From the NCBI GenBank assembly GCA_030141605.1, contig JAQGDQ010000272.1, positions 62,001 to 126,000 of the forward strand: a stretch of DNA of 64,000 nucleotides, written 5' to 3'. Positions 5,171 through 50,552 of this stretch are shown here, piece after piece; positions within the stretch are counted from its first letter, which is position 1, and each line of letters begins with the position of its first letter. Origin of the DNA: Tubiluchus corallicola (taxonomy: Eukaryota > Animalia > Priapulida). The position numbers were made by a program, and so were the translations under genes. A model generated the notes under the pieces. That model was given only the letters and a program-made list of their open reading frames with translations, searched no databases and was not told where the DNA came from.

Positions 5171-7359
5171 AAAACGGAAATACGTCTTACATGTCATTAA
5201 AACGTTAACAGCTAAGCTAAAAACAGCGGATTTTCTCTCTTAAGTAAAATAGTAAAATTATGAATTTAAATTTAAACAATTACATCGCTTCATCATTTAA
5301 GCTGACCAACTTCTGTTGCAACGGCAAATGCTCCAGTGCAAGCCTTCTTTCGGCTTAGCTTTAATTCACACAACATAAACTGTCTGCAAAAATCTCGAAG
5401 ACGTAAGAAATGCATTGAGACTGGGGAGAGGGGGGAACTCCAAAAACTGATGTACACTGCTTGCACTTTTGCAAGTTTTACGCTTTTACGGCTTTTTTAG
5501 AGTCTAAAATCAAGAAATTGTGCTACTTCGTGGTTTAATTATCTTGATTTTTTGTTTCTGGAAAGGTATCATAAGACGATCCCTTAGCTGACCATTGACT
5601 CCTGGTTTCGGTTCGTGACGAGATGACATCCCTAGGAATCAAAAAGAGATTTTAATGCAGAAAGGGTTATTTCAATCACCTAGTAGCTGCAAGCAGAAGC
5701 AGACAAGCAAACGCTTTTTTGCAAAAATTCATTTCTCGTTTAAGGCAATCAGTAGGATCCAAAAGATATAGATCGTAGTTGACCGATTCACATTCGTTCT
5801 ACAGGCTGGATTAAAACGACCACACAGGCATAGGTTTAGTGAACTAAGATTGACAGCAGGCACTATTAAAACTTTACAATTATTAAAAGTTAAAAACTTC
5901 GTCGTACAAGAAACACAAGGCAGCCAGTGAAAAGAAGTAGGCCTAATGCAATTTCTCAATATTGAAATCTTGAATTTTGAAATTTTAAAACAGAATTATT
6001 CGCCCCGAAAAAACAAAAAAACGGTTTTTTTGCCCTGAAAATGTACAATTCATTTACCCTGGGGATGGCAACCGCCGTGACCACCACCTCGCACGCTTAT
6101 GCGTGACACAGGAGTGTTTGTGAATGAAGAATTTCAAGACTAGTTTAGAAAATCAATGTTTCTGCGCTCTCTAACCTGCACTTAGTATTAAACCATAAAA
6201 GCATTCACAAAAAGCAAGCATTAATATAACTACCGAATATTACCACATACAGTAAACCACCCAGCTCGTTTATCGTTACCAAAATTTCTTGACTTTCTTA
6301 GAAATTAATTATATTAGTTAAAAATCATTATTTAAATTACTTAACCGTTATAGGTGTAGTGCATGATAACGGTTTAACTACTGAACTACTGAACTGGTGT
6401 ACACTGGCGACGTTTTATGTAAAAGTGGATACTGTTTTTAGTTTACTGTGATTGTTTGAGAGTTTTTGCTAAACAACAGCAAGACTGGCGGCGTCCTTTT
6501 GCTGAATACACTGTTAAAAAGAAAGAGTTTAAAAACTGAGGTAATCGTTAAAACAACAGCCAGGCTTACTTTCTCGTTCACCGCTCGGACGTACATTATC
6601 AGAACGCTGCTATAGTTAACTCTGTGTAATCCCTGTTTTTGCATTTAGTATGAAGACAATGTATGTGTCTCGCAAATGCTCCTTCTCTTTGTAAGCTTTT
6701 CGATCTAGAAGCAAGATTCTTATTGAAAAAACCATTAAAGACAGTTTTGATTTTCTTATCATCGTCAAATACTAAGCTAGGAAGGTTATATCAATTTACA
6801 TTCGACGTAAAAAAGTTATCAAATTTCTATAGCACTATTATCAGTTAAATAATAAAAATATTTCTCAGCCTTGTTTGACAAGTTGACACACCTCACAAGC
6901 GTTCATGTGTACGAATGTGTATAATGCATACCACGTGAAATTCGTTACCAGAAGAATTTTTAATTTACCGTAAACCATTTTTTTCTGCTGAAGGGTTTAC
7001 TGTCTGTACTAAACCCTTCGCACGTGACGGGCAAAAGGTTTCTTACAATAGTAAACCCTTTTGTTGCAAAGAAACCCTTTAGAAAAACCTATTTTTACAG
7101 TGTACTTACCAGCAGAAGAACAAAAACCGGACGTTAGAGGAAAATAAAATGTATACTTTTTATCGGACTTGAAAATGGGGAAAAATCATCCTGTCTTCCT
7201 TTAAATTCTGAGTAGAGTGTGTACTACAGTATTTTATCAAATACGCACGCACCTATAGATGTATTTAGCCGCTAGAAGCTGTTGGCAAAAGTTGTAACAT
7301 TTATATTTTTCTTTCAGAAAAAAAGCGAAATGAAGCATCCGAGTTAAGAACTGCTCAGT

Positions 7360-7703
7360 ATGTTGGCTTCAATACATCGTCAAACTCGTACTTGCATCAT
7401 CTACTGGATTTTGCTACGGATGTGGTCAGAAAGTCTAGTCCTGTCACTCGACCCAAGAACTTTGAGTGGCGCTGGCGCTTCCTTTCCAAATAAGGTGTAC
7501 CAGACTTGGGTGAAGATTTACCAGTCAGAGAGGGAAAAGTGGTTGTACTTGACCACATATTACTTAGCAGTTGGAAGTGGTACAGGGAAGGATTGGATTA
7601 AGAACAACAGCAGCCTCATTGATTATGCAGGAAGTGACAGCTTGCTCTCAGAGAGTGATTACCAGGAAAATCCGGATTTAGAAATGTTTCCTAGTCTAAT
7701 AGG
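7360..7703 (+). CDS. Copy A coding exon 1: signal peptide plus start of PstS-like domain
   Basis: Acceptor tttcAG at 7316-7317, ATG 7360, hydrophobic CIIYWILL, then TLSGAGASFPNKVYQTW..AVGSGTG..IDYAGSD..MFPSLIG; donor GTAAGT at 7704. Confidence 0.9.
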
Positions 7704-10700
7704 GTAAGTGGAATGATCCTACGGGAAGACTTTGTTTAAATAATAGTCGGTAGGTTGATAAGTGTAGTCTGTAACTTGGGGTGACTTCGCTTTTACATTA
7801 TTTTTGTTGTTGATCTTCACCGTCATTCATTTCCACTTCTGTTGACAAAGCAATCTTTATAGAGTGTTTGATGGTACTGCCCGATTGTTTCAACAACTGT
7901 CATTAAATCACAATATTTTTGCAAATATGGATGCCATATTAAAATGTGGACTTATCACAACATTCTACCAATATTTTTTATCAATATATGTAAACCATGT
8001 GTTTCCAATAGTGGACGGTGCTTGTGGGATGTTGCTCTTGCAGTCACCGTTGTCGCTATCGTCTCGAAGCTACTACTGTCAATGCCAACAAAACCAACGG
8101 TTGTGCCTCGCCTTGTTACATTAATTCACGTCACAGATTCATAAATTATATTGCCACCAATTATTTTGATTTGAAACCAGCCTTACGTTGTTCATCAAAC
8201 CACTTTAATGGTAGATGCTGTCAGAACTCTTATCATTAGTTCATAGGCACTGATAGGTCGGTCATGGTACCCGTTTTTCTGTTGCTCCTCATTACCACCC
8301 TGGACATTTCAAGATGCAGATCAGACAATGTTTCCTCGGACCCCTTTATCTGTGGAATTCTTTATCACAATTCGGTTTCTGAATTAACTACAACTCATTC
8401 ACACTCGAGAAGAGTATTCCCAAGTATTCTGTTTTTTTTGGACGTGCATTCATATTACCAAATTTCTACACAGCCCACTTATCCTGAGTGGTCGCTGGCT
8501 TTGTTTTGGCGACTAGAAGCACAGCAGCAACAACCACAACGACAACAGCAGTAGCAACGATAGCATTAACGACAGTAGGAGCAGCAACACACAAAGATAG
8601 TAAAAGTATGCGACTATAATCCCTACTGCCCAGGGAGCACACAAATTTGGTCACAATCTTGTTAGGATCTTGACAAAAATACGTTTAGAAAATATTGTCA
8701 CTATGGTGCCTTATAGGATATTTTTGTCAAATATAGGATATATACAATAATATTGGTACAACATCACACAAACACGGTTTACACATATTGATAAGAAATA
8801 TTGGTACAATGTTGTGGCGAGTCCATATTTCCGTATAGTATCCATATTTGCAAAAAAATTTCTGACAACATTGGTACAATATTGTCGCGCTGCCTTGGTG
8901 GTTTTATCATTTAAAATAGTTGTTGAAACAGCAATGGCATATAAAGTTAATCGAGCAGTACTATCAACACTTCAGATGCAGAAGCAGAAGTAGCAGCAGT
9001 AGCAGGACGAGCAGCAGCAGAAGCAGTAGCAGTAGAGGGACCACCAGCAGTAGAAGCAGCAGAGAAGCAACAGCAGTAGAGGGACCAGTAACAGCAGCAG
9101 AAATAGCAGCAACAGTAGCAGGACCAGCAGCAGAAGCAGCTACAGTAGCAGGACCAGCAGCAGCAGTAGTAGGACTAGCAACAGCAGAAGCAGCAACAAA
9201 AGCAGAACCAGCAGCAGTAGCAACAGAACAAACAGCACCAGCAGCAACAGCAGCGGCAATGTTGCAGCTAGCTAGAATAGCATTTAACAGCAGCGATGCT
9301 ACAAGGACAGAGGCAGTAGCAAAAGAGCAACAGTGCCAGCAACTGCAGCAGCATATTAGCAACTATACCAATAAAGCAACCTTTATGCTAATCACTCTGT
9401 TATGTTAGCGTATTTGTACTTTGCACCAATAATTATTGCAAAACGTTTGACAGATTTCGCCAAAGTGTATCAGTCACAAAGAATCATTATAACATTAATA
9501 TACGTAAATGACAAGTTTGCATGTAGGCGGATGTCTATAATAAATACTTCAATGTCGACAGGAAAATCTGCACACGTAATTGCTCTTAGAGCTCTCAAAA
9601 TCCTCACAGAATTTTGCTTCAAGTAAGCACAACGATCAAGTGTGCCATCCGTTCTGTCAAAACTGCATGTTTTCCTAATTAAAAATTTAGCACAACTGGC
9701 ACACAGGAGTACCGCAGGGAACGCACTACGCCCTATCTTATTTACTTTACTAGTATTCGCGAAGCAAAATGTAAACGTTAAAATAAAGACCAAGCCTTCT
9801 GTAAAGTCAGGCTTATTTCAATGTTCGCGAAAAATGTTAAAAGAATTTAGTAATAAAAGTGCGATAAGCGCCTCGTGTCATTAGTAAAATCACTTTAAAA
9901 TCGCGATCATTTCACTTTTTGGGCGCTCCAATTTTAAACGCCCGTTCTTCCGCCAATGACAGCATTCATCGGTTGAAGAAAAGCAGTGCACTGCCTGTTT
10001 CCATCAAAAGTACGATGAGTTTTTACAAAAAATTAGAGAGGCAATCCAATTTGCGAATTTTTGCATGAAAATAAGGTAAGCTATAGAAGTTTGAAATAGT
10101 TTAAGCAGGGCGCACTTACGGAAAGCCACGATACGCTTACAAAAAGTCGCGAAATCCATCAGTTTTATCGTCAATTTCTAGAGAATGGGCTGTCAAGATT
10201 TCTATGCAGCGATAGTATAAATCAACTTTGTTTTATAAACAGTTTTGTGCAAATTTCGTGTTATATTTTTCTTAGTTTAAGTGATAACAATAAAATAAAC
10301 CCAGCATGCTAAATGACTTGTCTTTTTCTTCAATTTAAATAAAATGCACTCTGTAAATCGTGTTCCTCTGACAACGACAGGGCCCTTTTATAATATTCTG
10401 AGATAAGACACCAATTCGGCCACGGTGCATCAGCCATCCATTCTCAACAAGGGCAGTGCGGCAAAAACTGTTACAGCCCAGAAACAGTTACCATGACGGT
10501 CACCTATAAATTTATTGACAGGCTCAGCATTGCTTAAGTTCTGTCGTTCAGCACATACCATTGACTACTCGGTTGTTTTCAGTTTATCCAGGTTAACAGC
10601 ATCTCATCCTGGCATATGGGGTCCTCCTTGAATTAATTTCAGATTTCTGGATCGAACTCAAAAGCATGCTGGTTTTCCTAATTCCGAAGTGGCCAACACG

Positions 10701-13700
10701 TTATGTTTTTAATTAATTTGTGAAGCAGGAGTACCAATCTGTAGTGTCTTGTGTCTAACACTGAAAATAGAGTTGTGCTGTTTATCTTTGCTGTGAGACG
10801 CATTTTAAAATAGACTAGAGCATGCAGTATTTCATGCTAAAGAGTAGCGAAATAATAAGACAGTATTTCAAAATCATTTGCCTAAATGTGCGTCAGTGCT
10901 TTTTGAAATGACATCTGTGACTATTAATCTTTTAATTTACAAAGAAGGCGTGAGAATCTGACGTCTTCCAGATTATGGGACACCTTAGTAACCATCTGAT
11001 TCCCAAGAGTACCCCGCATGTCAGAAGGAGATAATCGAAAAGAATGTGTAATTAACCTAACAAGTGAGTGTGTGCTGAATGACAGAAGTTAGGTAACATC
11101 GATTCTGTCAATAAATTGATGAGCGACTGCGCAGGAAAACTGTTTTCTGGGTCTTAAGCTGTTTCTTCTGCCGTGCTAATAAATAAATGTTAAACAAATA
11201 TTTTGTAGCGAATCCGGATTACAGCGCGGATCTGTCTCAGGATGTATAGAGCGGCATACAAGTTATGAAATACTACAGCAGGCGAGAAAAGTAAAAAGAT
11301 CCTGAATACGAATGTAAAATAAACTTTAATGCATAACCAGTAGCTCCATGACGTGTGAACAGACTTCAGACTTTGTATAAAAATTAGCAAGGCTACAGCA
11401 TTCACCTTTACAGACAGTTGATTATAAATCCATTTCTCTGTGGAAGCAGATCAATGATCCACTTGTGAATGCGGTGTAGCGCAATCTATCGAGATTGTCC
11501 CAAAGAAAAACTGTACAGTATTTTTTTAAACAGAGCAGAAATCAGTCTTTGCACATGCAAACGTTGAAGCTCAATTCAATGAATGCGTAGTTTGTGCAGT
11601 TGGTTGTGCAGAGTTGGTGGTTCTTGTGCTTGTGTTTCTTCCATCAGATTTATAGTTCTCCTACTACCCGCTATATGGCAAGTTAGGTATCAGTCTCTCC
11701 ACTTTATTTCTTTGTTCTGTTTTCCTTTAATTTGTTTAAAATCTTTTCATGGTTAGTTTAGGCCATGTAATATTTAAATCACTTTCCAGTTAAATCTTCA
11801 GCGTTATTTAATTCAGTTTCGTTTAATTGTGGTTATGTGGAAATCATTATTAGGCTGCTCCGCCTCCGTACCTGCAGGCCCGAACCACCCCCGGGTGGCG
11901 AGGAGCCACCAGCAGTTCAGTGGTTAGTGTTACGAAGTTTAGTTCAGTTCAGTGTTTATGTTAAATAAGTAAATAAATAAAGCGATGGTAAATAAATGTT
12001 TCTTTGTCTTTTGTCTTGCTGCCTGCAGTTATTTACCTGTTTGGGGGTGGATGGCTGAGACGCTTTATTTAATGTCTTATAATCTGTATTAAATGGCCCC
12101 GCTAGATACCAGATCCTGATTTGCAGAGTGTATCGTATTTAGATGAACGTTCAGATTTTCGTTTGCTAATATTAGAAAAGTAAATAAAATGGGACATAAT
12201 GCATTCCCCTGCAGTACTCCACCATACATGCTGTGCTAAAACTTGATTAGGAGAACCAGCGTGAAACATGTTACCTACTGCCTCATCGGTCGACTCATAA
12301 ATTATGTCCTACTGTAGGTAACATATTCCTTTTAATAATGAATTTTGTTTTCTCAGGGCGGTTGTGGTAGTTTTCAATCTGGGTACTCGTGTTCCAGCTC
12401 TGAACATGACTCGCGAAGGCCTAGTTGGTATTTACAATGGAACAATCAAGTGGTGGAATCATTCTGCATTGCAAGCAGCAAATCCTCAGATAACTCTACC
12501 TTTCAGAAGAATTAAGGTAGATACAACAATGGTAAAATCATGGGAAAAAATTCTGAGTGAGAGATGAAAGGACTCATAACTCGTATAAGTCGATGGAGAA
12601 ATCGAATTCTCAAGAGAAAAACAACTGCCAATACCCACTTAAGCAAATACGTGCCCATATATTCCAACACTGTCATCTGCAACGTATCAATCATAACATG
12701 GTCATGATCATGCAATTCTACCTAATAAAATGTAATATATATAAGTTAATATTTAGATCCAGCAAACCCCATTGTGAAATCCATTTCTAAACATTAATTT
12801 ACAGATCATGTAGTACATTGCCAAATGACAGAAAAACTAAGGTTATGTTACAACAACATAATTCATTCTGTCACTAAAGCCTGTGGGTGGCAATTGGAGA
12901 AATGTTTGCACCAACACATAACAACATGCTGTTTACTATTTAGAAACTGAGTTGTTTGCTTCTCACAATGTGGATTTGTGGACGCCAATATTTAGTTTTT
13001 GTATATTATATTTTTATTAGGTAGAATTGCGTGATCATGACTATGTCACCATTGAAACGTTGCAGATGACTGTGTTGGAATAAAGGATCATGTCCTTGTT
13101 TAAGTCTGTGCTGGTAATTGTTTTTATCTTAATAACTAGTGTAAATTATGTGCCATAGTGTAACGTACAGTTAGCACAGTGTGTCGGTTTTCTAATTTAT
13201 GTTTCATACAGTCATGCACAATTAAGATGGCTATCTGCAAGGCCTTTTCAAAAGTGGCAGGTGTAGCCTAAAGTATGATGGTAGTATGGTAACACTAATC
13301 CACGCATAAAAATTTTCGACTGTGCCCTTTGGAGACGTGTGGAAAACGAGCTAACCTTGTAAAAAAACCCTTACGGATAAAAATTAGCTATAAAAATTAA
13401 ATCTAATGGTAGAAAACATTCTCATCTATATTCTTGTAAAATCATATCAACATTTTACACAGGTGATAGCTCGAAAAGACGTGTCAGGTACCACAGAGAT
13501 ATTCACGAGTGCACTGAGTGCGTTCAGTCCTGAATGGAATGCCACCTATGGTACCTTCAATGACGGCATTGAGGACGATTGGACAATGAAATGGCCAAAT
13601 GACACTATTGAATTTGCTGGACAAAGGAGTATTGGAGTATCAGGGTTGGTCTTATCCATCGAGAACACTGTGGCTTATGTGTCGCACGCTGATGCTATTG

Positions 13701-15383
13701 AGGTATATTATATTCAAATATGTTTATAGTTGAGTAACTTCACATTATTGTATCAAGTGCTTGTTTTTATCTTTTGCTCGATTGTGCATAATAACATCTG
13801 AATACCTGCGACATAAAGATATATATAATGCACCTATCGGTGGACAATAGGTAGCTTGCTGTGTGCGCTGCTACGAGCCAAAGATAAAAGTTTTTATACG
13901 GACCTTAAAACCAGAGATTTCATTGGGAAAAATACGCGTAAGTGTCAGCTATAAACTCTTGTTAAGTGTTTCATTTTACCTTTTTTCTTTTCTTTTTTCA
14001 TAATTTTTTAGGTAATACATGCAGTAAATTATGAATCCTTGTTGTCATGGACGGCGTCACACTGGTGTCAGAAGTGGGATTCGAACCCACGCCAGGAAAC
14101 CAGACTGCGATGTCGTGTGATGCCGTCTATGATAACAAGGACGCGTTGGGTCGAAATGCTAACCAAGGAATTAAACCAAAAATTACTGAATCACGACTGA
14201 CTTAATAACAGCATCCAAGAAAAGAAAACAAAATGAAACCCGAAGCCGAACATAGCCCAGAACGCACTGCCCTCGAGTGTACGAGAACAGGTTACACACT
14301 CGAGAAAATTGGCCTAGAAAACTGAACTCTGATTGGCCCCCGCATTTTACATTCAGTACACTACATTTTCATGAAGCGTGTGGTTTCCGAGACCGTTTAA
14401 TCCTGCGACCCGCCACATTATATATATACATAAGTATTTATATACCATGTTACCTTATAAGGTTATATACATTAATAAGCAAAGGTTACAACAACATTAC
14501 ACAGTTTTCCAAGCAAGAATATCTCGAAATAGAACCGGAACTTACTCCTAGTTGTGTGTCCTGGTGGAAATAAGAAGAAAAAAGTACTAAACACCCCCTC
14601 TGAGACCGCCATGCAATGCTTCACAAACGTTTCTTGTTTCGTCAAAATTTGTGAAAAAAGGCCGGTGATAATGTTCCCATTTTGAGACCCTATACTCGCC
14701 TTTCTTCACAAAGTTTCGTGGAAATCCGTTAGATAGTTTTTGCAAAATAAGCTTACTGCCATAACAGACAAAAACAGCCAAATAAACAGACAAACAAACT
14801 GTGCCGAAGCATAATTTCTTTGGTAACAGCCAAATAAACAGACAAACAAACTGTGCTGAAGCATAATTTCTTTGGTAGAGGTAAAAATAACTAAAATAAT
14901 TATCCCCACTGTAACCCTAATCCTAAAAACATATTTTATTAAGCGTGACATTGTTTCCTATGCCTTTTCACCTACTTTTCGTTTGTGCTATTTTTTCCTG
15001 TGCCATTTTTACCTACGTTTCCATTTGTGTCATTTTTACCTACTTTTCCATTTGTAGCATTTTTCCTGTGTCATTTTTACCTACACTCAACTCCCAATAT
15101 TTCTAGTATATTATATAGAAATTATAAAATTTCACGATACGATTATGTTAACTCCAACGTATGAACACACTAAAGGTTATTACTAATTTGTTATTGTCAG
15201 TATAATAAGAATAACATTCATTTTACTTCCTTTTTGTACAAATGTCTTTGCTATTTCTGATATAATGAATCAAATTTACTTCAAATGTAACCTCCTAATT
15301 ACTGATTCTAATACGTGTGGGATGAACCGAGCCAAGGTTAATAGATTTGGCACAATTAGCTATATATAATCGGCCGAATACTG

Positions 15384-15443
<60 letters not shown>

Positions 15444-18400
15444 TGTCACATCTCTGTAAGAAATCTGAGATTCCTAATGTGGTGTTTGGAATCCAAAAAT
15501 CAAATGGTATAATATCTCTGTATAATTTTATAACGACAGGAGCATTATTTGATTTAATGTAACATGTTTGAGTGTGTTGAAAAATATATCAATAATTTAG
15601 GTATTTTTTATGCTAAGAAACTGAACTTACATGTTTATATATATCATTATTCGTGTTTAACTTGTATACGTTAGGCAGTTAATTAAGTTAAACAGACACT
15701 CGGTATCAACAACACTAGTTAATTACCTACTCATACATCCAAAATAATAACAGCTAATGCAAGGATTTTACAGACATAATCTAATTGGTGATAATGCAAG
15801 GATTTTATACAATGTTTACAAGTAGGCACTAAAAGGTGGCTAAGTAGCTTATGATTATTTTCAATTCTTCACTATTTAGACCTACGTCATATATGCCTTT
15901 CATCCCATATTAACACTCCTTGATCACATTAGCGTTAATATCATATTTTCTTGCGTTAAATTACCAATATTACGCTTAATAAAAACATGTAAGTTAAGTT
16001 TCTTAGAATAAAAAATATCTAAACTGTTGATGTTTTTCAACATGTTACATTAAATCAAATATTGCTCCTGGCGTTATACAATTATACAGAGATATTATAC
16101 CGTTTGATTTCTGGATTCCAAAGACCATATTATGAATCTCAGTCTTCTTACAGAGATGTGGCAATTTAGAGGACAGATTTGCAATAACAGGCAACAAATT
16201 TCCATAGGTTCGTCATGGCAACCCGAACATTCTATAATACCTGTATTCCAGGCTACACATAAACGATTTTTAATCCAAACGATTTTTAATAATATTTTTA
16301 ATATAATGTTTTTAATACATTTTAATACCCAACCGCCAAGCCTGACAATCATAATACGATGAGCAATACGTTTGCATTGTTTTTTGTGTAAGCAGTATGT
16401 TTATTGAGCCAAAGCTCGTTATAACACAATTAGTTTAACCAATGAATTCTCCGTTTTTTCTCTCGCAACTTGTTGCGCGACAAATTAAGAGAAGTTGCTA
16501 AGCCATTAATACGTACGGCTTAACTTACAGAGAGAAGTTGCGCAACAAGTTGCGAGAGAAGTCTCTATAAGTCTGAACGCGCCATCAGAGAGAAGTTGCG
16601 CAACATGTTGCGAGAAAAGTCTCTATATGTCTGAACGCGCCATCAGAGAGAAGTTGCGCAACAAGTTGCGAGAGAAGTCTCTACATCTGAACGCGCCATT
16701 AAAAACGCCTACATCTTCATAAGGATTACTCATAACTATATTACCGACATGAGTTACTTGATTAACCCACGTCAGAAGCATGTTACATTAACAGATGGTC
16801 GGGTTAATCAGCAACTGATATATGTCTTTTTGTTTACAAAATCTAATACACAGCTCGTAAAAGGTTAATTCCATATTCATTACAGTATGTGTCACAAATA
16901 TTTAGCATTTGCTGCAGTGCTGGAGCTAGCACGCTCAAATTATCAGCATAAGAAAATGTCCCATAGAAGCGGCTGCCAATGTGACACCCATAACCAGGTT
17001 GTTGCAAACGAATCAACAGTCCATCTACATATTACGCTAAACAACGTGGGTGGCAAAACTCCACCTTGTTGAACGCCTAAATTCTGCTTATAATTCCGCT
17101 TATAATTTCAAAAGCTGCTTGTTGTTATTGCGTTATGCACTACAACGAATAAACATCATCTAAAGTAGTAGTTTCCAAAGACTATGTAGATTGTAGTATG
17201 TTTCCACAATAATGAACATCAGTGGATGGTCCAAAGAGCACTTGTGATATTGGAGTTGTTGTTATCGTCGTCATTGTCGTCATTGTCGCTATTGTTGTCA
17301 CATTCAGCAGCAGTGGCGATGGCACAGTGTGGGTGGTAAAATGTGGTTGGTGTGGTGAATGTAGTGTAGCGTGGTGGGTGCATCATGTTGGGGTGATGTG
17401 GAGTGGCATAGTGTGGGTGTGGTGTGGTGCAGATGATGTGGTGCGGCTTGTCGTTGTGAGTTTATGTGCAAAATTCTTTTGTGGGGTTTGGCTAGTTCAT
17501 ATTAATCTCAAGAACACCAGCTGATTTTAAGATGTGTTATTTCACAATATTTGTGGTATTTTATTTCGTCAGGTACCTATAATTTTTATAGTACTGTACT
17601 GAAACCCGATTTAGAACATTAGAGAGAACCGGGCCGAATCCGTCGTGTGAATTAACTGCGACAACTTATGTATTAACTGTGAAAAAGGTGGGTCGAGTTC
17701 CAATACATTACAAAAGAGCCAAAGCTACTCCAAGTCTTATTCGTTTTATTTTGCATGAGATAAAAACGCGGCATTCATCTAATTTTGTAACTTTACGTCA
17801 AGGATTGGCACATTTGTATGTTTGTGAGTTTCTTTGCGCAGCGCGGCACCTCAAAAAGCAGTGAAAGAATTTCGAGGAGGGGCGTGTCTATATGAAGAAA
17901 AGTAAATTATTTGTTAATATTGATGTGTGAAGAATTTTGTTTGTCGTTATGATAAAATACCGCAGCAATACAATAAAGGACAGTATGAAGGACGACGTCT
18001 TCGATTTAAATAATACTCTAATTAATAATTGACAAAAGCAACGAAAACGCCAAAAATATTAATAGGAGAGTAAAGGTAACAAACTACTAGAACAAAATGT
18101 AATAGAATTTTTCTCTTCAGATTGTATTAGAATGTGGTCTTCAAGTGCCTTCAACAAAAATTGGGCAAAAATCGGTTTTGCTACTTTTGAGATATACGCA
18201 TAAATCCAAGATGGCGCCTACTTGGGCCAAACATCATGTATATCTCCTAACCCATTGCGCCTAGATGGAAAATATGTATTATTGACTGATAAGAAAGTGG
18301 AACAGAGAATTCCAAAAATGCAGTCATTTTTCAACTGTGAGGTCGGAATGATGTCACAATAGTATTATGACGTAATTAAGAACATCTCTGCAGATTTTGG

Positions 18401-21400
18401 GTTCTCGTAGTTTCAAAAGTGTTATACATCCAAATGCACGCACGTTTTTAAAGCAGAAGCTTATTCTTTTGTGACATGGTACAAAAGCGAGTAAGAGCAC
18501 GAAACAATATTGTATTGTTATAATATACTACAAGTATTGCTGAATCAACAGCGACTCCATCACTAGTTCCAGTTTAATTTTGGCATAAACTTTGTTCGGC
18601 CATGTTTGGATTTTATTATTTAATTACAACAACCATTTATTAGAATTAATAGACCTAACAGTTAACTTTGAGGCACCTGATTTGGGCACGCAGGTTATTT
18701 AGTCACGTAGGTAATGTGAACACGTGCATAAGCTTTTAAAGGAAAACCGGACCTAATCTTAAATTATATCAGTCAAACTCAATCAAATTACTTCAATATC
18801 ACTATCAATTCAATCAACGTATAGCTCAAAATAATCTACCCTTTAAAATATTGAAAGGAAACATACCATTTCAAGAATGACTTAAGTGAAAGATTTATTA
18901 TCACAAAAAAGTAATTTCACGTTCGTGCGGCTTGTTCTTTTTGCTGTTACACACATTTCGATATTCTATTGTTAGACGGGCGCAATATACTTTTTTAACT
19001 ATACGCTGTGCATTTTGACTTTCTTTTTGAACCGGTAGTATATGTTACGGCCGGTTCAAAAAAACAGTCAAAATGCACAAAGCATAGTTAAAAAAGTATG
19101 TATTGTTGGCCATCTTGTCCCTTCAAGTGAGCGCTTTTGGAAGTAATTCTCGAAAATTTCAATTTGTAATTTTTGAATATTTGTTAATTGTAAAATAGTG
19201 TATGAACCTAAATCACGGATTTTCTTCATTTAACTTATCATTAATGGACCATATTGCATTATTAATTAAACTACTCTAAGAATGTTCATAGTGATTCATG
19301 GCAACAATTGACTAAATGTTTTCCGAATTACCATTGCAATGTATTTTTTTATTTTAGAATTTTTACAATATCATGTTTTGAAGATCTGAAAATGAAAACT
19401 AGAGTCTTTCGAAGTGTCATTGTTTACACATGCCATTGTAATTATTTCACAAATACCATTGTGCGATTTTTTTGTGATAATTGATTGATTTTTGGCGAAG
19501 AATTTCATGATAATCTTGTATCCAAATTGCCTATGTGTCCAAAATGTCTTTTGTCCATGTGACTTTTATGTCCAAAATACCATGTGCCCAAATGATCTGC
19601 GTAACCAACTTTCTTGTGTTCAAACTACCTACTTGTGTCCTGTGTTCAAATTTCTTATGTGCGTAAGTCATCTAGGTATCCAAATTATCTATGGATTATG
19701 TGATAATTGTGATAATATAGGACCAGTACAGACAGTGCCCAAGTTGCCTATGTGTTCAGTTTACCTGCGTCCAAACGTTTTATGTCGAGTTGTCTGCACA
19801 CGGGGGCTGGTGAATTTCCAGGCTACTCATTTCACTCGAAAAAGTATCCCAAAGCTTTCAGGTCACTGTCCCAAATATATCCCTCAAGACAGCAGATGTC
19901 CGAGACACACAGTGCTTCAGATTCTCGAGCGCTTCAATAATGTTCTAATATAATAAACCGTACTGTCCTGTCGTTTGTTGTCTTTGTACCGCTAGCAAAA
20001 GATTTTGTACTAGCCTAAGATCACCACCTTATTACAGAGAAAGAAAATCAATTTCGATCAAAAAAGTAATGGAATGGTGATCACTAATCGAAGATCATGA
20101 AAAAAACTACAGTAAACAGAATGACGTCTGGAGAACCAGTTGCATCTTCAAAAGAAAAAAGAAATAATTATCTCAGTTTTGCAGAAAGTTTGGTAGAGGC
20201 TCTCGCATTTAAAGTTTGCCCTTCTAGTTCTCCACTATTTTTGTGTGACCTATGCATTTTTTGTTCAATGGCTACAACTGGCCGGAGTCACGACCGGACC
20301 AAGACTGACCACGACTAACCCAACTTTTGACAGACTGAATCGAGTCCGCAAACCTTATGGAAATATTAGACCCAAATGAGACCAGACTACATTCTGTCTA
20401 CAAAGGCAAATCATGCACATTACAGATACTGTAATTTCAATGCAATGCCACTAAGGATGACGCTAACTGTGTTGACCAACATTCGGTAACAGAGCTAGCA
20501 TTGCAGTATTGTAAATACACTAATCTGTTCATGCTTATGTAAACGCTCTGCGTAGTTTGCTTGCCTATTTGCATCTGTGTCTTGCGAATGCCCGCAGCTT
20601 TGTAAAGAGCAACCTCCGCTGAAAGCTCTCCTGGCGAGTGCGTATATTTCTTTAACATTATGGGTTACTGACTTTAGCATCGGAAGTATGCTGGAAGCTG
20701 TTGCTCCAGCCAATAAACTGTGCATTAAGGTGTGTTTTAAATTACTGCGCCTACAGGCCAATCAACATCAACTTGGAAGTAGTGCCCGTCTCCATGGTGA
20801 CATGACAGCAGAGGACGTTACTATGGTGACAGGTCAGCAGAGGCTCGGTGCTAGGTGTTGCTAAGGATAGATATTTTTAGATGACATAAGTTAACCAAGT
20901 TTAGCCTCAGAATTGAGGCATATAAGGACCAACATTATCAGCTGGAAAGTAGCCAGTTTATAGACACCAGTGCTTTTCTACACATTCGGCACCAGGCATA
21001 TTCATACTCTCTTGGACTTACTGTGGATGTTCTGCAGTGTACTTTATATTCAAAATACCATACGATCACATTTGCTAAACAAGACTTTGTGTTTTATACT
21101 TCGATACACGACAATAATTATAGTGCATATCCTAAGAAACGTCTTCAATCTATAACCAGTACTGCATTACAAAACCATATTATTATTACTGGTACTGAAC
21201 AAAGACTTCATTCATTATTACTGATACCGAGCTACAAAACTCCATCATTATTTTTGTTCTACTAATTTTCATGCGGTGAAAAACTTATTGCTGTCATGAT
21301 TGCTTTGTAGTATGGTTGCTTATGTCCGATTTATGTCCTTATGTGGGACTTTTGTGCTAAAGTTATTTTCTTGGTTAAAAGTTAATGATTGTGACCTACG

Positions 21401-24400
21401 GTCCAAAAAATTGGGTGCTATTTTTTTCAAGCCTAATGGGGGCACCATTTTTAATTGGGTTCAGATCAGAGAAATGCCTCACTATTCACTACAAACACCT
21501 GAAAACTCACGGAAAAGGAGCAACCCATTTTAGGGTATTTCACTGAACCGGAAGTAGGGCATGCCCAAATATTTCACTGTACAAAATCTGAAAATTACTG
21601 GAATGTGGTATTTTAGAATGCTGAATACGGATATGAACTTTTCTGGGGCGGAGGGTTCTACTTGCACAGGCCGACAACTTTATAGGGACCAAAAATGGGG
21701 CACATCGTAGTATTTAGCACAAAATCCTAAGTATTGCAAGAAAGGGGGTTTTTGCGACACACTGAATGGAAATCTACTTTTGGTTTCACTGAACGACAGC
21801 ATCTAGTTGCTCTATCGTCTGTCTGACTCCGCTAGAATTGCTTATAGTTTCAAAGCCAGTTCCATTATTCACTCTCTTGTTATTTGCATACTCAGCTGTT
21901 TGACATAATGTGCTTGATGCTAAAGTAGCTGCCTAACCCATGTGTCACCATGGCCCGACTACAGTAAAACAGACATTGCATGGAGAAGTTGAGATAATAA
22001 ATTTACTCATCTTTACAGTAGACCGATTATATTACTAACGTTATTGTTTAATTTGCTGTAATAGTACGCTTGAAGTGCATACAATAAATTGCAGAATACA
22101 GTCATATGGAATTAAGATTTTTCGTCCAGTTATTTATTTATTTATTCTCCGCAAATTTAACTATTATAATAACTCAAAAGCCTAGCAAGCTAAGGTCACT
22201 AAGCTCACAGGGTTGGTAGCCCTTGTCGGCGGATGAACAACAGTATGGTGACCACTGACCACCGGTCAAAGGTGGAAAGGCAGTGGGCGTTGGTCAGTTT
22301 TCCTTTAGGTCGCATCTCTTCCTAGGGCCTTCGGTTTTTTCCATTTTTTACAAGTATTTGGGTACTGTAGGGTAGATGTGCACCTGGGGTCTTAAAAAGT
22401 TGACAAGCTTCAAACGCCCGAGAGATGGGCCAAAATACAAAATTTGGGGTCCCCCATTTGGTGACCTTTTATATGCTGAGGGCTAGGGACAAAAAGCTTA
22501 CAGGGCACACTCTCCGGGCAAAGTTATTTGTGTGTACATGTGACACAAATTATCGGGTTAAAGGTCACGGAACGAGGGAGTCTTCATTTATTTTTCTTCA
22601 TGATTCATCTACTCCCGTAGTTTTTGAGCTAGGGCCACAATATTTGGTATGTTGCTAGGTGGGGTCGCACTCTAGGTGGGGGGCTACAAAATATGGGACA
22701 TGCACGTATACGGAAATTTTCCGCTAGGGCAAAAACCGAAAAATAGGGGTCGCAAACAGAAATGTATTGAGCAATGATACCTTGTAGCACATCAAATGAA
22801 AGGTTTCGATGAGGCGAATCAAATGGTGTAGGTTACAATGAGAATCGTTAACATGTGGCCGAATTGGGGGCAAAATAGGGGTCGAGAAGACATTTGCCTT
22901 TCTAGTTAAACGTAGCTGGCTTGTAGTACGTCGAATGAAAAGTCTCAATGAGACAAACTAAATGGTAGTAATTACCCAGAGATTAGTTAATCTCTAACTG
23001 CAGCAAAAACTGGAAAAAGGGTGTCAAGAAAAAAATGCATCAAGTGTCGAGCAGTAGTACCATGTTACATATCATATGAAAGGTCTCGATGAGACGAATC
23101 GAATGACATATGATACAATGAGAGTGGTTAACTTGTGAACCCTCTAGAAACAAGGAGTTCAGGAGACAAATATCTTCTAGTGTCAACCGAAACTAACTTG
23201 TATCAAATGAAAAATCACAATGAGGCAAACTAAATGATATAAGTTATGCCGAGATTGGCTGACCTTTGACACCGGCGGGTGACGGGCTGAACAGTAAAAT
23301 GCTGAAGTTTCATTGTGAAATGCACTTTCCATGTATTCAAGTAAGGTGAATTCAATAAAAAATAAGCACTTTAAAAAGGCTGCCATCTCTTCATTTTTAA
23401 GGCTCAATTTTATAACTATTGTTTGCAAAATCTTCAGTTTCTGATCACGTCAGAAACATTGTCAGCTAGTTTATCACTTGAAATTGAAACTGCTCACGCA
23501 AACGTTGACGTAAATTTATTGCTAATTTTTCAGAGTGGCCTTCGAATAGCTCCAATTGAATCACGAACTGGCGAAATGGTCTTTCCGACACCAGAGTCAG
23601 TACGTCAAGCGGCGGTAGATTATAAGGACGCGTTCACGTCGCATTTTACAGCCCAGATTGTCGATCCGCCCAGTAGCAATGCTTACCCCATCAGCGGTAA
23701 AATGTGTAACATAAAAGTGGTTTAAATACTAGACGTTTAACAGCATTTTTAAAATGTCAACGTAACTAATTTGAGTGATACATTTTGATTTTGTAGGGAG
23801 CCGTTGCAATAAGAAGTATCTTAAATATGTAGTTGATTTGTAATTAGGTAACACACCTAGTAACATGACTAACATGCTATACGACATTTTTAACTCAGCA
23901 TAAGAAAGACAGAGAGACGGAGAGAAGAAGAGAAAAAGAAAAAGTAGAAGAGGGACAGAAAGAAAAAAGAGGATCGGGAGTGGATAAACCGAGAACAAAG
24001 AGAAAAGAGTGAAGAATATTAGGAGATAAAACAGAAAGGGGATAGAAAGAAAGTAAACATAATATAAGAACAGAAGGAGGGAGTCTAAGGGAAAGAGAGA
24101 GAAAGACAGCATGCACAAGATTACAAGACTAAAAGTACGTGTACTTGAACTTGAATCAGAAAAATCGAAAACTCATCTTTAATAACCAAATAATTTAGTT
24201 ACTAACCGCAATCAGGTTATAGAAAAACTGTTAGATTGGATACAATTATAGTCCAACTGCAACCTATATTTTATTCTTCCAGGTTACACTTACATCATTG
24301 TCCACATGTCCACCATGCAAAACTGTGACTCGGCAAAAGAGCTGGTCAGGTACTGTGATTGGTTCCTGCACGACGAAAGTGCCAGTAGAACTGCAGATCA

Positions 24401-27400
24401 GTTTGGGCTCATATCAGTTGGACCACAGATCAGCAGCATCATCGTTTCAAAAGTTCTTCGACATCTGACATGTCACGGGATGAACATATGGGCAGAGGTG
24501 GAAAAGGAAAAGCAGTGGGAAAGAAAAGCCGAGCAAAAATGGCGGCTTCCAGTATATATAGTGGCACCATTTGTTAGCTTGGTTCTGATTGGTCTAATCA
24601 CGTATTCGATGTACAGTTACGTGAAGACAAATAGAGCCTTGATGCGAAATGAATGGAAGATAAATGCAGATGAAATCGAAATTAGTAATCGGACAAAGTC
24701 AGCTTATTCCGGAAGCATAAAGTCCATTTTTAGCCGAGGAAAACTATCGGGACGTGATAGCTTGGCTAACTATTGCAACAACGATTTTACAGTTGCCAAT
24801 TACCTAGAAAACAGAGTTTTTCTAAGAGCCGTTAAATCAAAGACCGTGCCACATTTTTCAAGAGAAACAAAAAGGTTACTTCTGTGGATGAAAGACAGTG
24901 TACGCCATCCAAATGTACTGATATTTTACGGAGTGGCAGAAATTAAAGGTGAATGGAAATTTGTGTCCGATTTCTGTTCAAAGGGCAGTTTGGTCGATGT
25001 TCTTCAGGCTGACAAGTACTCCTTGGACAATTCATTTAAATTTGCTTTGGCGATCAATGTTGCTAATGGGTTGTTATACTTGCACAAATTGGGGATAATT
25101 CATGGTCATCTCTGTTCTGCTGTTTGTTTTGTTGACACACAATGGAACGTGAAAATCACAGATTGGGAATTCAACAAACTGAACAGTTATCAAAAGAGGA
25201 AGAAGAAATGCCAAGTGTTTCCAGAAAACCCATCTGCTGCTACCGAGTCATTCACAAATGAAATAAACAGGGAAAAGTTTTTCTTTTCACCCCAAAAGCT
25301 GAAAAGTGACCCTGACAAATATGCACCTACCAAAGTGGATGATATTTACAGTTACAGTATTATAACATATGAGATATTTACAAGGCAAGATGCGTATGAA
25401 GATATCCTAGAAACTATGACAGAACAAGAAGTTTTATATTCCATTGCAAAGAAAAAACTTCGTCCTCGAAAAACCAAGGATGTACCGGATACAGTATTTT
25501 CTGTGTTGGAAATGTCTTGGAAGGATGAGCCATCAGAACGCCCTAATGCCTCCCAATTGCACAAGAAAATGAAACTTGCCAATCCTTCTAAAAGAAGCTT
25601 AATGGATAGCATGATGCGGGCTGTAGAGTCTTACACACTGGAGCTAGAAGATCGAGTTAATGAAAGAACAGCTGAATTAGCGCAGCTCACAAGCAGCATG
25701 GAACAACTTCTAGGACGCATGCTTCCTCCAGACATAGCAGCTAAGTTAGCCAGAAATGAAGAAGTGCAGCCGGAATATTTTGAATGTGCTACTGTGTTTT
25801 TCTCGGACATTGTTGGCTTTACATCATTATCTGCAGCTTCAACACCATTGGAGGTTGTTAACCTGTTAAACGTATTATATACATTTTTTGATTCAGTGAT
25901 AGAAAACCATGATGTGTACAAAGTAGAAACAATAGGCGATGCTTACATGGTCATATCGGGTGCCCCAAAAAGAAATGGCAAGTCCCACATTGTTCACGTG
26001 GCAAATATGGCATTAGACATTGTTAATGGTATACAGGATTTCTGCATCCCTCATTTGCCTGATGAAAGACTTTTAATTAGGTGCGGCATTGCCACTGGAG
26101 CTGTTATGGCAGGTGTTGTTGGGCTGAAGATGCCTAGATATTGCATATTCGGAGATACGGTTAACACAGCCTCGCGAATGGAATCAACTTCCTCACCACA
26201 GAAAATTCAGGTAAATTATTTTTCTCTTTTCAATCTTTATCGTTTACTAAAATCCTTTATCTCGTTATAAGATTCTTGCTATATAAGTGCAAACCACACG
26301 CCACCATGACATTTTGTTTGCCGAAAAAGAGATTCCTGTTTGTGTTCATAAACTGGCATTGCAAATGCTGTGTGTGATTAACTATTTGATGGCACATTCG
26401 CTGTTTCAAATAACTTCTCCGGCATTTGAAATTTTATAAAGAAGATATGAAATGAACGTGCACTTAAAATATTTCATTATTTAAGAACAGAAAGTCGACA
26501 ATTTGGTCGTGATGCTGTGATTTATACCACTTCCCACAGTCTTGCTCTATGCATACCTAGATGCAAATAGTTGCTTATAAGTTAATTGTGTTCCCTCGGG
26601 CTTTTTATCGTGGAATTTTCTACTAGGAAAGTGTTGCAATCGGCTCACGAATGCCAACGTATGATTCTAGTTATGGCAACGAATTATACGTGCTGCCATT
26701 TCCATTTTTGATTCGCAATGCTTTTTTTTACAGCTCGTATTTCTTGACAATTCTTGATGACCTCGTATTTAGTCTGATCAATGTAGTGAATTCAAATCTT
26801 TGATAAATTTTATGTTAGATTTATTGGTTATATTATGACAGTTTTTCAACATACTGTAAATTGATTTGGAGAAGTCAGTGAATGACCAGGTGTTGAGTAA
26901 TGATAACAAAGAAAACAGATAGTCTGTACCTTCCTGGTTAAAAGCCATGTTACAGTATTCTATCATTATGACTTGTCTATCAGGGAGAACAAATTTGCCA
27001 AAAGAGTTAAAAAGCTGCAAAGCACTTGAACAGAAATTAACGAAATAACATTTTAAACTTGGGCGTTAACACTACGCGAAATGCAGATTATTATTGTTGT
27101 TACACTTTTGCAGATAACTGATTTTGCCAATGACATGCTGATAATGCAAGATGGACGCTATTTTACAGAATACAGGGGAGAGGTGGATGTGAAGGTAAAC
27201 TTGTGGATGTAACATCTTTCACTCCATGTTGTACCACATAAAAACATTTTGCTCTCTTTTCAATAACGACCATGCAACGACCACCTTTTCTCTTTTCTTC
27301 TTTCTTCTGTTTCTTCAATTTTCAGTGTGTTTTTTTTTGTTCAAGCCTCCCATGAAGAGAGTAAATAAACCGTTGTGTCTAGGTTTAAGTTAGATTAGAA

Positions 27401-27737
27401 GGCGCTGAGAGGTGTAGAAACAAGGAATAGTTTATGGACATTAGTTAAATCTATTAATAAACGCATTAAGCTTGTAATAAATAGTTCCATTGTTTTACAT
27501 TACTGTTTACAAAGTCTGTCATCTCGAGGTTCACCTGAAGGGACCTTTCACTTGTAAAGTTCACTGCACAAAGCTTAGCATGCCTGTACATTATTGTTAG
27601 AAAGTTACTCTTGAAACTTTGTCTTATAGAACAAATTAAGGTCAAATTGTGTATTTTATATAGCAATTTCTTTGTAGGGAAAAGGGAAGATGAAGACGTA
27701 CTGGTTGGTATGTAAACTACTCGCCCCCGTGGTCTAG
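7360..27737 (+). CDS. Receptor guanylyl cyclase with PstS-like phosphate-binding ectodomain, copy A (spliced, 991 aa)
   Basis: Exons 7360-7703, 12357-12516, 13463-13702, 23534-23696, 24283-26210, 27114-27194, 27678-27737. All introns are GT..AG with compatible phases (2,0,0,1,0,0), giving a 2976-nt open frame. Motifs: TLSGAGASFP, GSGTG, DYAGSD, RKDVSGTT, AYPISG (PstS-like); TM LPVYIVAPFVSLVLIGLITYSMYSYV; kinase-like HPNV..HGHL; FSDIVGFT, YKVETIGDAYM, PRYCIFGDTVNTASRMES, KGKGKMKTYWL (guanylyl cyclase). Confidence 0.92.
8975..9360. repeat. Degenerate (AGC/AGT)n trinucleotide low-complexity tract in copy A intron 1
   Basis: Runs of agcagc/agtagc; a shorter counterpart lies at about 38150-38310 in copy B. 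Confidence 0.85.
12357..12516 (+). CDS. Copy A coding exon 2 (PstS-like)
   Basis: tctcAG acceptor; AVVVVFNLG..LVGIYNGTIKWWNHSALQAANPQITLPFRRIK matches the PstS IYLGKIKKWDD..LNPGLKLP pattern; donor at 12517. Confidence 0.9.
12605..13135. mobile_element. Foldback/MITE-like element with about 130-bp imperfect terminal inverted repeats, copy A intron 2
   Basis: TTCCAACACTGTCATCTGCAACGT..GTCATGATCATGCAATTCTACCTAATAAAA (about 12660-12730) is the reverse complement of 13012-13081; absent from copy B intron 2. Confidence 0.7.
13463..13702 (+). CDS. Copy A coding exon 3 (PstS-like, RxDxSGT motif)
   Basis: cacAG acceptor; VIARKDVSGTTEIFTSALSAFSPEW..VAYVSHADAIE; donor at 13703. Confidence 0.9.
14063..14110 (-). 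pseudogene. Reverse-transcribed 3' half of a tRNA-Leu including CCA (extended primer-binding-site-like sequence)
   Basis: Minus strand TCGCAGTCTGGTTTCCTGGCGTGGGTTCGAATCCCACTTCTGACACCA: anticodon-stem 3' strand, long variable arm, T arm, acceptor strand and CCA; no 5' half. Confidence 0.8.
14111..14417 (-). mobile_element. Possible LTR fragment abutting the tRNA copy
   Basis: Minus strand begins TGTGGCG and ends CACGACA, contains CCAAT; its end resembles 14036-14062; no target-site duplication seen. Confidence 0.35.
14700..15085 (-). mobile_element. Non-autonomous DNA-transposon-like repeat (other copies about 30490-30910 and 31803-32920)
   Basis: Shared AAAGTTTCGTGGAAATC..AGTTTTTGC, ACAAAC runs, TAACCCTAA, and reiterated TGTGCCATTTTT subterminal motifs. 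Confidence 0.7.
15388..15439. repeat. (AT)n microsatellite
   Basis: Perfect dinucleotide run. Confidence 0.95.
16528..16699. repeat. Three tandem copies of a 56-58 bp unit
   Basis: CAGAGAGAAGTTGCGCAACAAGTTGCGAGAGAAGTCTCTA..TCTGAACGCGCCAT at 16528, 16586, 16644; inverted partial copy at about 16458-16482. Confidence 0.9.
18983..19105. repeat. Long imperfect palindrome (arms about 53 bp, 15-nt loop)
   Basis: ATACTTTTTTAACTAT..TGTGCATTTTGACT..TTTTTGAACCGG pairs with CCGGTTCAAAAAA..AGTCAAAATGCACA..ATAGTTAAAAAAGTAT. Confidence 0.85.
22740..23265. repeat. Diverged tandem array of about 140-bp units with a conserved 36-bp core
   Basis: Core RTCRWATGAAARRT..RATGAGRCRAAY..AATG at 22791, 22930, 23071, 23202. 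Confidence 0.75.
23534..23696 (+). CDS. Copy A coding exon 4 (PstS-like)
   Basis: tttcAG acceptor; SGLRIAPIESRTGEMVFPTPESVRQAA..NAYPIS; donor at 23697. Confidence 0.88.
24283..26210 (+). CDS. Copy A coding exon 5: end of PstS-like domain, TM, kinase-homology domain, coiled coil, most of the guanylyl cyclase
   Basis: Contained in ORF 24306..26270; ttccAG acceptor at 24281-24282, donor GTAAAT at 26211; canonical GC motifs. Confidence 0.95.
27114..27194 (+). CDS. Copy A coding exon 6 (cyclase C-terminal part)
   Basis: ttgcAG acceptor; ITDFANDMLIMQDGRYFTEYRGEVDVK; donor at 27195. Confidence 0.88.
27678..27737 (+). CDS. Copy A terminal coding exon
   Basis: tgtAG acceptor; GKGKMKTYWLVCKLLAPVV-stop. 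The TTG|GTATGT inside it could be an alternative donor. Confidence 0.82.
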   Translation, partial: GKGKMKTYWLVCKLLAPVV

Positions 27738-28429
27738 CACGCCAAAGCCACATGTAAGATGCTTGTGTGGAAAAATTTTGGATTTTGTTAAACTTTTGTA
27801 ACGATTTCGGTGTGATAGCGAGCGGGATTAAAATTCGTGAATCATTTTATTGCTATAAATTGTATTCAGGTAGATAAAAAGAAAAATTGTTATAATTGAT
27901 GATTTGTATGTGAAGCATGGTATATTGGTATCTTGTTATCTAAGGTATATTGGTTTCTCTGACCCTTATTAATGACGATAATAATTAATAGATGATAAAA
28001 TGAGTCTAATGAGTTCTGTCATGAAATCACACGTTTAAGATAAAAGGAAGAATATGTTGAAGTATGTTTCTTTTGTAAATCGCAACTCTAATATGCCCTT
28101 TCGTTGCTGAAACACTTTTTCTAGCACAATTACACATCCTTCAAAATCGTGGTTGACATGCAATTTTAGGGATCTTAAGCGTTTTTATACAACAAAGTGG
28201 TCAAGTCGCTGCTAGTGTAAAACTCTCCACTCCTAACGATTAGCATCTTGTAGAAGCAGACATGGCTAATGTTAGAGACTTAACTTTGAAGAGACGTAAA
28301 CAGTTTTTCGATTAAAAGCTTGATTTGAATGAACGTCTAAAGTTTGTTTGGTGATTAGTAATAATTCACGTCATCACTCTGTGCATTTGATTTCTTTAAT
28401 TACAAAGTGTTATAATTACAGTTCTGACA

Positions 28430-50530: not shown

Positions 50531-50552
50531 CACGCCAAAGCCACATGTAAGA

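Follow-up and report, generated by a model that had tools for sequence, protein, structure and literature searches.

The window analysed here is a 64,000-nucleotide stretch of contig JAQGDQ010000272.1 from the priapulid Tubiluchus corallicola, AT-rich and intron-bearing, with a GC content mostly of 30–42%. It contains a gene for a single-pass receptor guanylyl cyclase that carries outside the membrane a PstS domain, of the type found in bacteria and archaea. The product probably functions as a phosphate-gated sensor at the cell surface that turns inorganic phosphate into a cyclic GMP (cGMP) signal. It is a receptor guanylyl cyclase by its intracellular half, and is neither a natriuretic peptide receptor nor a transporter PstS. 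The gene represents a real, conserved variant of the receptor guanylyl cyclases with an intact predicted phosphate site, and it is apparently undescribed. We know of no receptor guanylyl cyclase that senses phosphate.

Architecture of the receptor

The gene lies on the + strand, with its ATG at 7360 and its stop codon ending at 27737. Seven exons encode 991 amino acids with one terminal stop; splicing is predicted from the DNA, with GT..AG ends at all six introns and matching phases. Exon 1 (7360–7703, amino acids 1–115) contains a probable signal peptide, about amino acids 1–29, and the start of the PstS domain with site residues S41, F42, S73 and D93. The domain continues through exon 2 (12357–12516, amino acids 115–168; PBP_like_2, E value 0.005), exon 3 (13463–13702, amino acids 169–248), which carries the second lobe with R172, D174, S176, G177 and T178, and exon 4 (23534–23696, amino acids 249–303). 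Exon 5 (24283–26210, amino acids 303–945) holds the end of the PstS domain with cysteines C317 and C366, a transmembrane (TM) segment (about 24549–24617), the kinase-homology domain (about 24816–25571), a coiled coil and, starting at about 25767, the greater part of the guanylyl cyclase. The cyclase continues in exon 6 (27114–27194, amino acids 946–972), and exon 7 (27678–27737) adds amino acids 973–991 and the stop. The phases, the GT..AG ends and the 991-amino-acid product bear out a preliminary description of this DNA, in which exons 1–4 and the start of exon 5 were joined in frame in a seven-exon model. The spliced protein is gap-free at all six junctions against seven of the eight database homologs compared; the Priapulus model has four extra residues at junctions 1 and 3.

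The ectodomain was compared with a hidden Markov model profile of 326 positions, for which prokaryotic PstS domains alone were used. Over profile positions 8–312 the spliced sequence reaches 232 bits, and 200 shuffled versions of it score no more than 4.1 bits (116 reported). Exons 1, 2, 3 and 4 and the start of exon 5 match positions 7–82, 85–136, 138–203, 210–261 and 263–322, respectively, i.e., in consecutive and non-overlapping order. Because the PstS domain ends inside exon 5, its fusion to the TM helix and the cyclase is visible in a single reading frame. Exons 1 and 3, each alone, match PstS chains in PDB and also TIGR00975. Two homologs, P0012 (200.9 bits) and P0032 (203.4 bits), fall just short of the TIGR00975 PstS equivalog cut-off of 205. 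With the first 92 residues of exon 5 alone no PstS chain was found in PDB, and this stretch is placed by the prokaryote-only profile; an ESM Atlas search with the first 125 residues of the exon gave a lead only (0.76). The profile score and the PDB matches of exons 1 and 3 uphold the PstS identity that had been proposed from the letters of the DNA. The absence of an ANF-receptor-type ectodomain, also proposed, holds as well: there is no ANF_receptor match in the exons of the window or in any of 30 homologs scanned with Pfam.

The fold is represented by an AlphaFold2 model of a homolog from the snail Nucella, P0012, which was built on a 56-row alignment and has a mean predicted local distance difference test score (pLDDT) of 89. 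In a fold search against PDB this model ranks PstS structures first, with template modelling scores (TM-scores) by target of 0.84–0.87, in line with a two-lobed PstS fold. In the model, helices 367–382 and 386–419 form an almost unbroken stretch that starts where the domain ends, enters the membrane and crosses it.

The phosphate contacts of Escherichia coli PstS (PDB 1IXH) given in the available text are T10, F11, S38, D56, R135, S139, G140 and T141 (PMC6549937). Contact numbering was counted from the 1ixh alignment, and positions were mapped via the alignments of exon 1 and exon 3 to PDB chains. The counterparts are S41, F42, S73, D93, R172, S176, G177 and T178 in the gene described above, which is the first of two copies in the window. 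Seven of these eight contacts are identical, the one change being T10 to S; in the second copy F11, a backbone contact, is additionally replaced by Y. D174 of copy 1 is the counterpart of E. coli D137, which has a second-shell role at the phosphate site. D56 of PstS selects protonated phosphate over sulfate, and PstS is also able to bind arsenate.

The cysteine pair C317/C366, at the end of the PstS domain, is conserved in 129 of 131 family members. It is found in 7 of 88 prokaryotic PstS domains, all from Chloroflexota. N-glycosylation sequons number seven before the TM helix and two after it. The receptor resembles bacterial and archaeal PstS in its fold (by the homolog model) and in its phosphate contacts, but differs in having a sequon-rich ectodomain fused in frame to a membrane cyclase, an intron-containing gene and an added cysteine pair. 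Unlike transporter PstS, it is not a free or lipid-anchored subunit of PstSCAB.

A single TM helix follows the ectodomain. The top hydropathy peak (2.3) is at amino acids 391–409, and a second peak (1.9, at amino acid 899) falls within the cyclase domain. Exon 5 matches PK_Tyr_Ser-Thr (E value 9e-29) and Guanylate_cyc (E value 1.5e-52), and in PDB it is closest to atrial natriuretic peptide receptor 1 (E value 1e-93), with which it aligns continuously. The kinase-homology domain is a pseudokinase, with HGH at the catalytic loop and DWE at the DFG position. All seven cyclase positions checked, D811, E851, D855, R921, C923, N930 and R934, are retained in copy 1 and copy 2 alike, with the same residues as in the natriuretic receptor; we take them to be the metal-binding, GTP-specifying and transition-state residues of the cyclase. 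Hydropathy, Pfam and the NPR1 alignment agree with the order first described, in which one TM helix, a kinase-homology domain, a coiled coil and a guanylyl cyclase follow the ectodomain.

A single TM helix, a pseudokinase, a coiled coil and a class III guanylyl cyclase are also displayed by known animal receptor guanylyl cyclases (NPR-A/GC-A, GC-C and Caenorhabditis elegans GCY-1, GCY-4, GCY-14, GCY-22 and GCY-8), but the Tubiluchus ectodomain is PstS (PBP_like_2) and not ANF_receptor. The receptor nucleotidyl cyclases of Acanthamoeba and giant viruses, as far as the available text describes them, likewise combine an extracellular domain, one TM helix, and cyclase plus kinase in one chain (PMC4053784). 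That text reports 67 receptor cyclases flanked by two kinases in the Acanthamoeba genome and, in the part available, leaves the ectodomain unnamed (Clarke et al., 2013; PMC4053784). In the Acanthamoeba proteins the cyclase lies between two Ser/Thr kinases (PMC4053784), whereas the Tubiluchus protein has one pseudokinase and a C-terminal guanylyl cyclase of natriuretic-receptor type. The nearest ESM Atlas cluster by features (0.91) consists of 79 proteins with PBP_like_2 (85%) and kinases, and the one assigned member is from a discosean amoeba.

Tandem copies, protostome relatives and cyclase loss

A gene is indeed present at 7360–27737, as the preliminary description had it, but it is not alone: a complete tandem copy is found at 37546–50530, and both belong to a protostome-wide family. 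Copy 2 is open, encodes 991 amino acids and has the same seven exons and phases on the + strand (37546–37895, 41401–41560, 41914–42153, 46181–46343, 46920–48841, 49908–49988 and, with the stop, 50471–50530). The two proteins are identical at 928 of 994 aligned positions (93%). Comparison of the two copies gives a ratio of nonsynonymous to synonymous substitution rates (dN/dS) of 0.24 over the whole protein, with 0.18 for the ectodomain and 0.10 for the cyclase. Purifying selection acts on both copies and constrains the cyclase most.

An uncollapsed haplotype was considered as the source of the two copies and is ruled out by intron lengths of 9831 versus 4027 bases and by intron sequence most of which is unalignable. 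As the introns differ greatly in length and mostly fail to align, the copies are tandem paralogs. From exon 4 to past exon 7 (23498–28122 versus 46145–51355) they are 84–98% alike, introns included, whereas introns 1–3 are mostly unalignable; gene conversion of the 3′ half may lie behind this likeness. An independent sequencing run, X1, behaves as DNA and covers introns of both copies; no splice joint is seen in it or in a second run, X2, which gives no usable cover.

Some 30 bases ahead of the start codon, and directly behind a strong splice-acceptor-like site, the two copies share a very short upstream open reading frame (7330–7347, five codons, in copy 1; 37517–37531, four codons, in copy 2). 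Both are likely to have a non-coding exon upstream. Intron 3 of copy 2 contains a broken reverse transcriptase of the long interspersed nuclear element (LINE) type (43707–45517, − strand; RVT_1, E value 2.8e-12). Beyond copy 2, an STT3 oligosaccharyltransferase gene probably has its first coding exon at about 54139–54306 (+ strand), with an E value of 6e-5 that is just short of the Pfam cut-off.

Relatives were collected with a profile from the first 126 residues of exon 5, and two word-based searches added members. The profile search yields 123 clusters at 50% identity with E values up to 0.001. PBP_like_2, kinase and cyclase are found in one chain in 22 of the 30 Pfam-scanned homologs. Named members come from at least 22 species in four protostome phyla (16 molluscs, 3 annelids, 2 nemerteans and Priapulus caudatus). 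No named protein with a PstS ectodomain turned up from deuterostomes, cnidarians, arthropods or nematodes in these searches, which cannot show absence. Most of the relatives carry automatic receptor guanylyl cyclase names in databases ("atrial natriuretic peptide receptor-like", "retinal guanylyl cyclase-like" or "speract receptor"), and others are entered as hypothetical. Among the named relatives, that of Priapulus caudatus is closest (49.6% over 885 amino acids; tree support 100/100). In its database model (P0002, XP_014672517.1) similarity begins at the exon 2 equivalent, with no equivalent of exon 1, and the model is probably incomplete.

Conservation was assessed in 143 animal-type sequences, after 18 non-animal or unrelated matches and 16 near-duplicates (10 members of the P0013 cluster, P0124, P0125, P0149 and P0160–P0162) had been left out. 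Many of the 143 are fragments, 102 reaching the kinase and 59 the cyclase. Where covered, the site residues are kept as S/T41 (20/20), F/Y42 (19/20), S73 (24/25) and D93 (23/25), and those of the second lobe as R172 (85/85), D174 (73/85), S176 (81/85), G177 (84/84) and T/S178 (84/85). Conservation has a median of 0.48 per column; the polar site residues rank above 145 other polar columns (Mann–Whitney p 2.5e-5, for sequences that are related and hence non-independent). Many invariant ectodomain positions fall outside the phosphate site; R58 is invariant (21/21). The animal domains also display an insertion of about 8 residues relative to E. coli PstS, after the second-lobe Trp.

The cyclase is less uniformly kept. 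All seven catalytic positions are retained in only 13 of the 49 relatives whose cyclase is covered. The cyclase is degenerate in all 16 named mollusc proteins; Paralvinella has one intact and one degenerate paralog, and among nemerteans the Lineus cyclase is intact and that of Tubulanus degenerate. Orthologs with an intact cyclase are also those of Owenia and Priapulus. A paralog tree of 54 rows was made from ectodomain and pseudokinase, with the cyclase excluded; its root is not known. The 14 proteins with intact cyclase, including that of Tubiluchus, form a single group, with a support of 93 in the Shimodaira–Hasegawa-like approximate likelihood ratio test (SH-aLRT). Their sister is a largely molluscan degenerate group, the 28 rows together having a support of 100. 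A second set, of annelid, nemertean and mollusc proteins, is wholly degenerate, and the phosphate site survives in both sets. This pattern suggests two old paralogs, with cyclase activity lost in one and lost again in molluscs.

Origin of the PstS domain and other eukaryotic fusions

A domain tree was made from 70 PstS domains chosen from 190 (24 animal-type, 13 other eukaryotic or unnamed and 33 prokaryotic). The animal rows form one side of the tree (100/100), and eukaryotic and prokaryotic rows separate (100/99). Identity to the 88 sampled prokaryotic PstS domains is 24–35%. The nearest sampled prokaryotic row is a pstS gene of Anaerolineae (L074, 1148–2290), which displays the eukaryotic signature motifs and the cysteine pair and is flanked by genes for a phoR-like kinase and a pstC-like permease (labels read from translations).

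A recent direct transfer from a prokaryote to animals was tried by forcing the 24 animal-type rows together with L074. It is disfavoured by the approximately unbiased test (p-AU 0.02 under LG+G4), which is moderate evidence only; the hypothesis was named after the tree had been seen, and the prokaryotic sample was pattern-selected and capped. The ectodomain had initially been termed bacterial PstS-type. The PstS type stands, but not a passage straight from a bacterium into an animal, as the domain nests in a eukaryote-wide PstS clade. The domain thus appears to be bacterial in type with a long eukaryotic history as a sensor module, and would be no fresh bacterial graft.

Fusions of the same PstS subfamily are found in other eukaryotes. 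In the fungus Calcarisporiella thermophila, PstS is joined to a class C G protein-coupled receptor (GPCR) in P0142 (7tm_3, E value 4.5e-41), with Glu at the D56 position; this protein is a candidate fungal phosphate GPCR. Tetraselmis P0145 is a fusion of PstS to a phosphodiesterase, and Chromosphaera P0097 has four PstS repeats on a multi-pass receptor. Across P0097, P0145, P0141 (a multi-domain receptor of Palpitomonas), P0171 and P0143, the fusion partners comprise ephrin-receptor-like repeats with a multi-pass domain, a phosphodiesterase, WWE with PARP, and a class III cyclase. The fusions of Calcarisporiella, Tetraselmis, Chromosphaera and Palpitomonas share with the Tubiluchus receptor the phosphate site and mostly the cysteine pair, but the output domains differ, and none seen whole is a receptor guanylyl cyclase. 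P0128, an ENA record, combines a tandem pair of PstS domains with a TM helix and a C-terminal region that by eye resembles the start of a receptor-cyclase pseudokinase. It lies outside the animal group in the PstS tree and ends too early to show an output domain; it may represent a second PstS-receptor-cyclase lineage. No viral PstS fusion is found among the best 80 of 295 viral matches, all 80 being stand-alone PstS of at most 365 codons.

Proposed phosphate gating and its alternatives

From the architecture, the PstS fold of the homolog model, the contacts and the intact cyclase residues, we infer binding, closure, coupling, direction and site of action as follows. Phosphate would bind in the cleft between the two lobes and close it, as in PstS. 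Closure would move the C-terminal helix that runs on towards the TM helix, with the conserved cysteine pair probably stapling this helix to the PstS domain. In a dimer, the TM helices, pseudokinase and coiled coil might then be re-registered and the cyclase switched. Activation by phosphate is favoured, and inhibition is possible. The most likely setting would be phosphate sensing in water, sediment or gut fluid, since the phosphate of body fluids would fill a site of PstS grade completely unless it binds more weakly. Phosphate is low micromolar in seawater and millimolar in body fluid. The contact residues kept here and across the family strengthen the idea of a putative phosphate sensor. There is a parallel in C. 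elegans, where receptor cyclases are thought, in the available part of one paper, to bind ions directly via their ectodomains (PMC8045692).

Several points weigh against phosphate gating. The structural model is that of a homolog with 38% ectodomain identity and not of the Tubiluchus protein. The N-terminal site positions are covered in only 20–25 of the 143 sequences. The probable signal peptide is weakly hydrophobic, with a hydropathy peak of only 1.45 near amino acid 12; homologs have clearer hydrophobic leaders. Family members are known from their sequences and from predicted structure, and a structural phosphate that is always bound would account for the conserved site residues as well. 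According to the same partial source, in some C. elegans receptor cyclases the ectodomain is dispensable and one is inhibited by its ion, chloride (PMC8045692). Catalytic residues are missing from 36 of the 49 relatives, in which the phosphate site is nonetheless retained, so that the family can function with no cGMP production of its own. Because most relatives have such a degenerate cyclase, conversion of phosphate into cGMP is conceivable only in the intact subgroup, to which the Tubiluchus gene belongs.

Other readings of the ectodomain have also been weighed. A related anion or phosphorylated molecule (arsenate, phosphite, phosphonate, pyrophosphate, polyphosphate or a phosphate ester), or phosphate together with pH, might gate the receptor instead of orthophosphate alone. 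The insertion of about 8 residues and the invariant R58 could reshape the cleft, and arsenate is a PstS ligand; but none of the eight direct contacts has been lost, the D56 counterpart included, and the nearest prokaryotic relative belongs to an operon for phosphate transport, which makes gating by another anion rather unlikely. It is unlikely, too, that phosphate is a permanent cofactor or co-agonist and that the true stimulus is a peptide or protein on an animal-specific surface, as in natriuretic peptide receptors. Peptides are ligands of the classical animal receptor cyclases in the available text of the oyster kinome (PMC4883820), body fluids would keep a high-affinity site saturated, and the invariant positions outside the phosphate site are numerous. 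However, the same domain and site occur on unrelated non-animal outputs (class C GPCR, phosphodiesterase, PARP and cyclase), and with such varied fusions a reusable small-ligand sensor fits better than a peptide receptor.

Phosphate might also be bound while the signal leaves mainly by another route, as a heterodimer subunit or through the pseudokinase acting on a transporter or scaffold, cGMP playing a secondary part. The many degenerate cyclases, among them those of all named molluscs, the intact and degenerate paralogs side by side in Paralvinella and the Lineus and Tubulanus pair are consistent with this. Heterodimers of incomplete cyclases have moreover been proposed, in the part of the literature available, for C. 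elegans receptor cyclases. For the Tubiluchus gene such a route is quite unlikely, however, with all seven catalytic positions kept in both copies, the low dN/dS of the cyclase and the single group formed by the intact proteins. A gene-model or assembly artefact, in which exons 1–4 would be a separate secreted PstS gene or a contaminant, is highly improbable. The joining of exons 1–4 to exon 5 is read from DNA alone and intron 3 is 9.8 kb long, but the PstS end in exon 5 shares a reading frame with the TM helix, kinase and cyclase, the arrangement is present twice in the window and recurs in single homologous proteins, and the independent DNA run covers introns of both copies.

The earlier statement that no characterised animal receptor of PstS plus guanylyl cyclase architecture was known agrees with the literature search, in which no description of a PstS-bearing receptor cyclase was found, most subscription journals being outside its scope. 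In the parts of these sources that are available, the oyster kinome counts 23 receptor guanylyl cyclase kinases with PBP or phosphate-binding unmentioned (PMC4883820), a guanylyl cyclase survey does not mention phosphate or periplasmic (PMC1435932), PMC13401447 treats PstS of symbionts only, and an amoeba GPCR survey has PBP_like_2 only in its abbreviation list (PMC10445921). The architecture is already visible in precomputed Pfam columns of databases. Many proteins named "ANP receptor-like" or "retinal guanylyl cyclase-like" are flagged by the family as something else.

To our knowledge, extracellular phosphate sensing in animals is unsettled, and no receptor built around a dedicated phosphate-binding domain is known. 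The balance tips slightly towards the view that this old protostome family represents dedicated animal surface receptors for extracellular inorganic phosphate. These would be phosphate-gated guanylyl cyclases with intact and cyclase-dead paralogs, which may heterodimerise, and they would be built around a PstS module also present in fungi, algae and unicellular relatives of animals, where its outputs are GPCRs, phosphodiesterases and cyclases. The family offers a phosphate-binding domain with an intact site and a direct enzymatic read-out, by which animal phosphate sensing becomes testable; a genetically encoded phosphate-to-cGMP reporter is a possible use. If the hypothesis is true, PstS would be a phosphate-sensing domain that is spread across eukaryotes and has been overlooked. 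Annelids, nemerteans, molluscs and priapulids would gain a phosphate sense that is apparently absent from the standard model animals, with a bearing on feeding, sediment choice and shell mineralisation.

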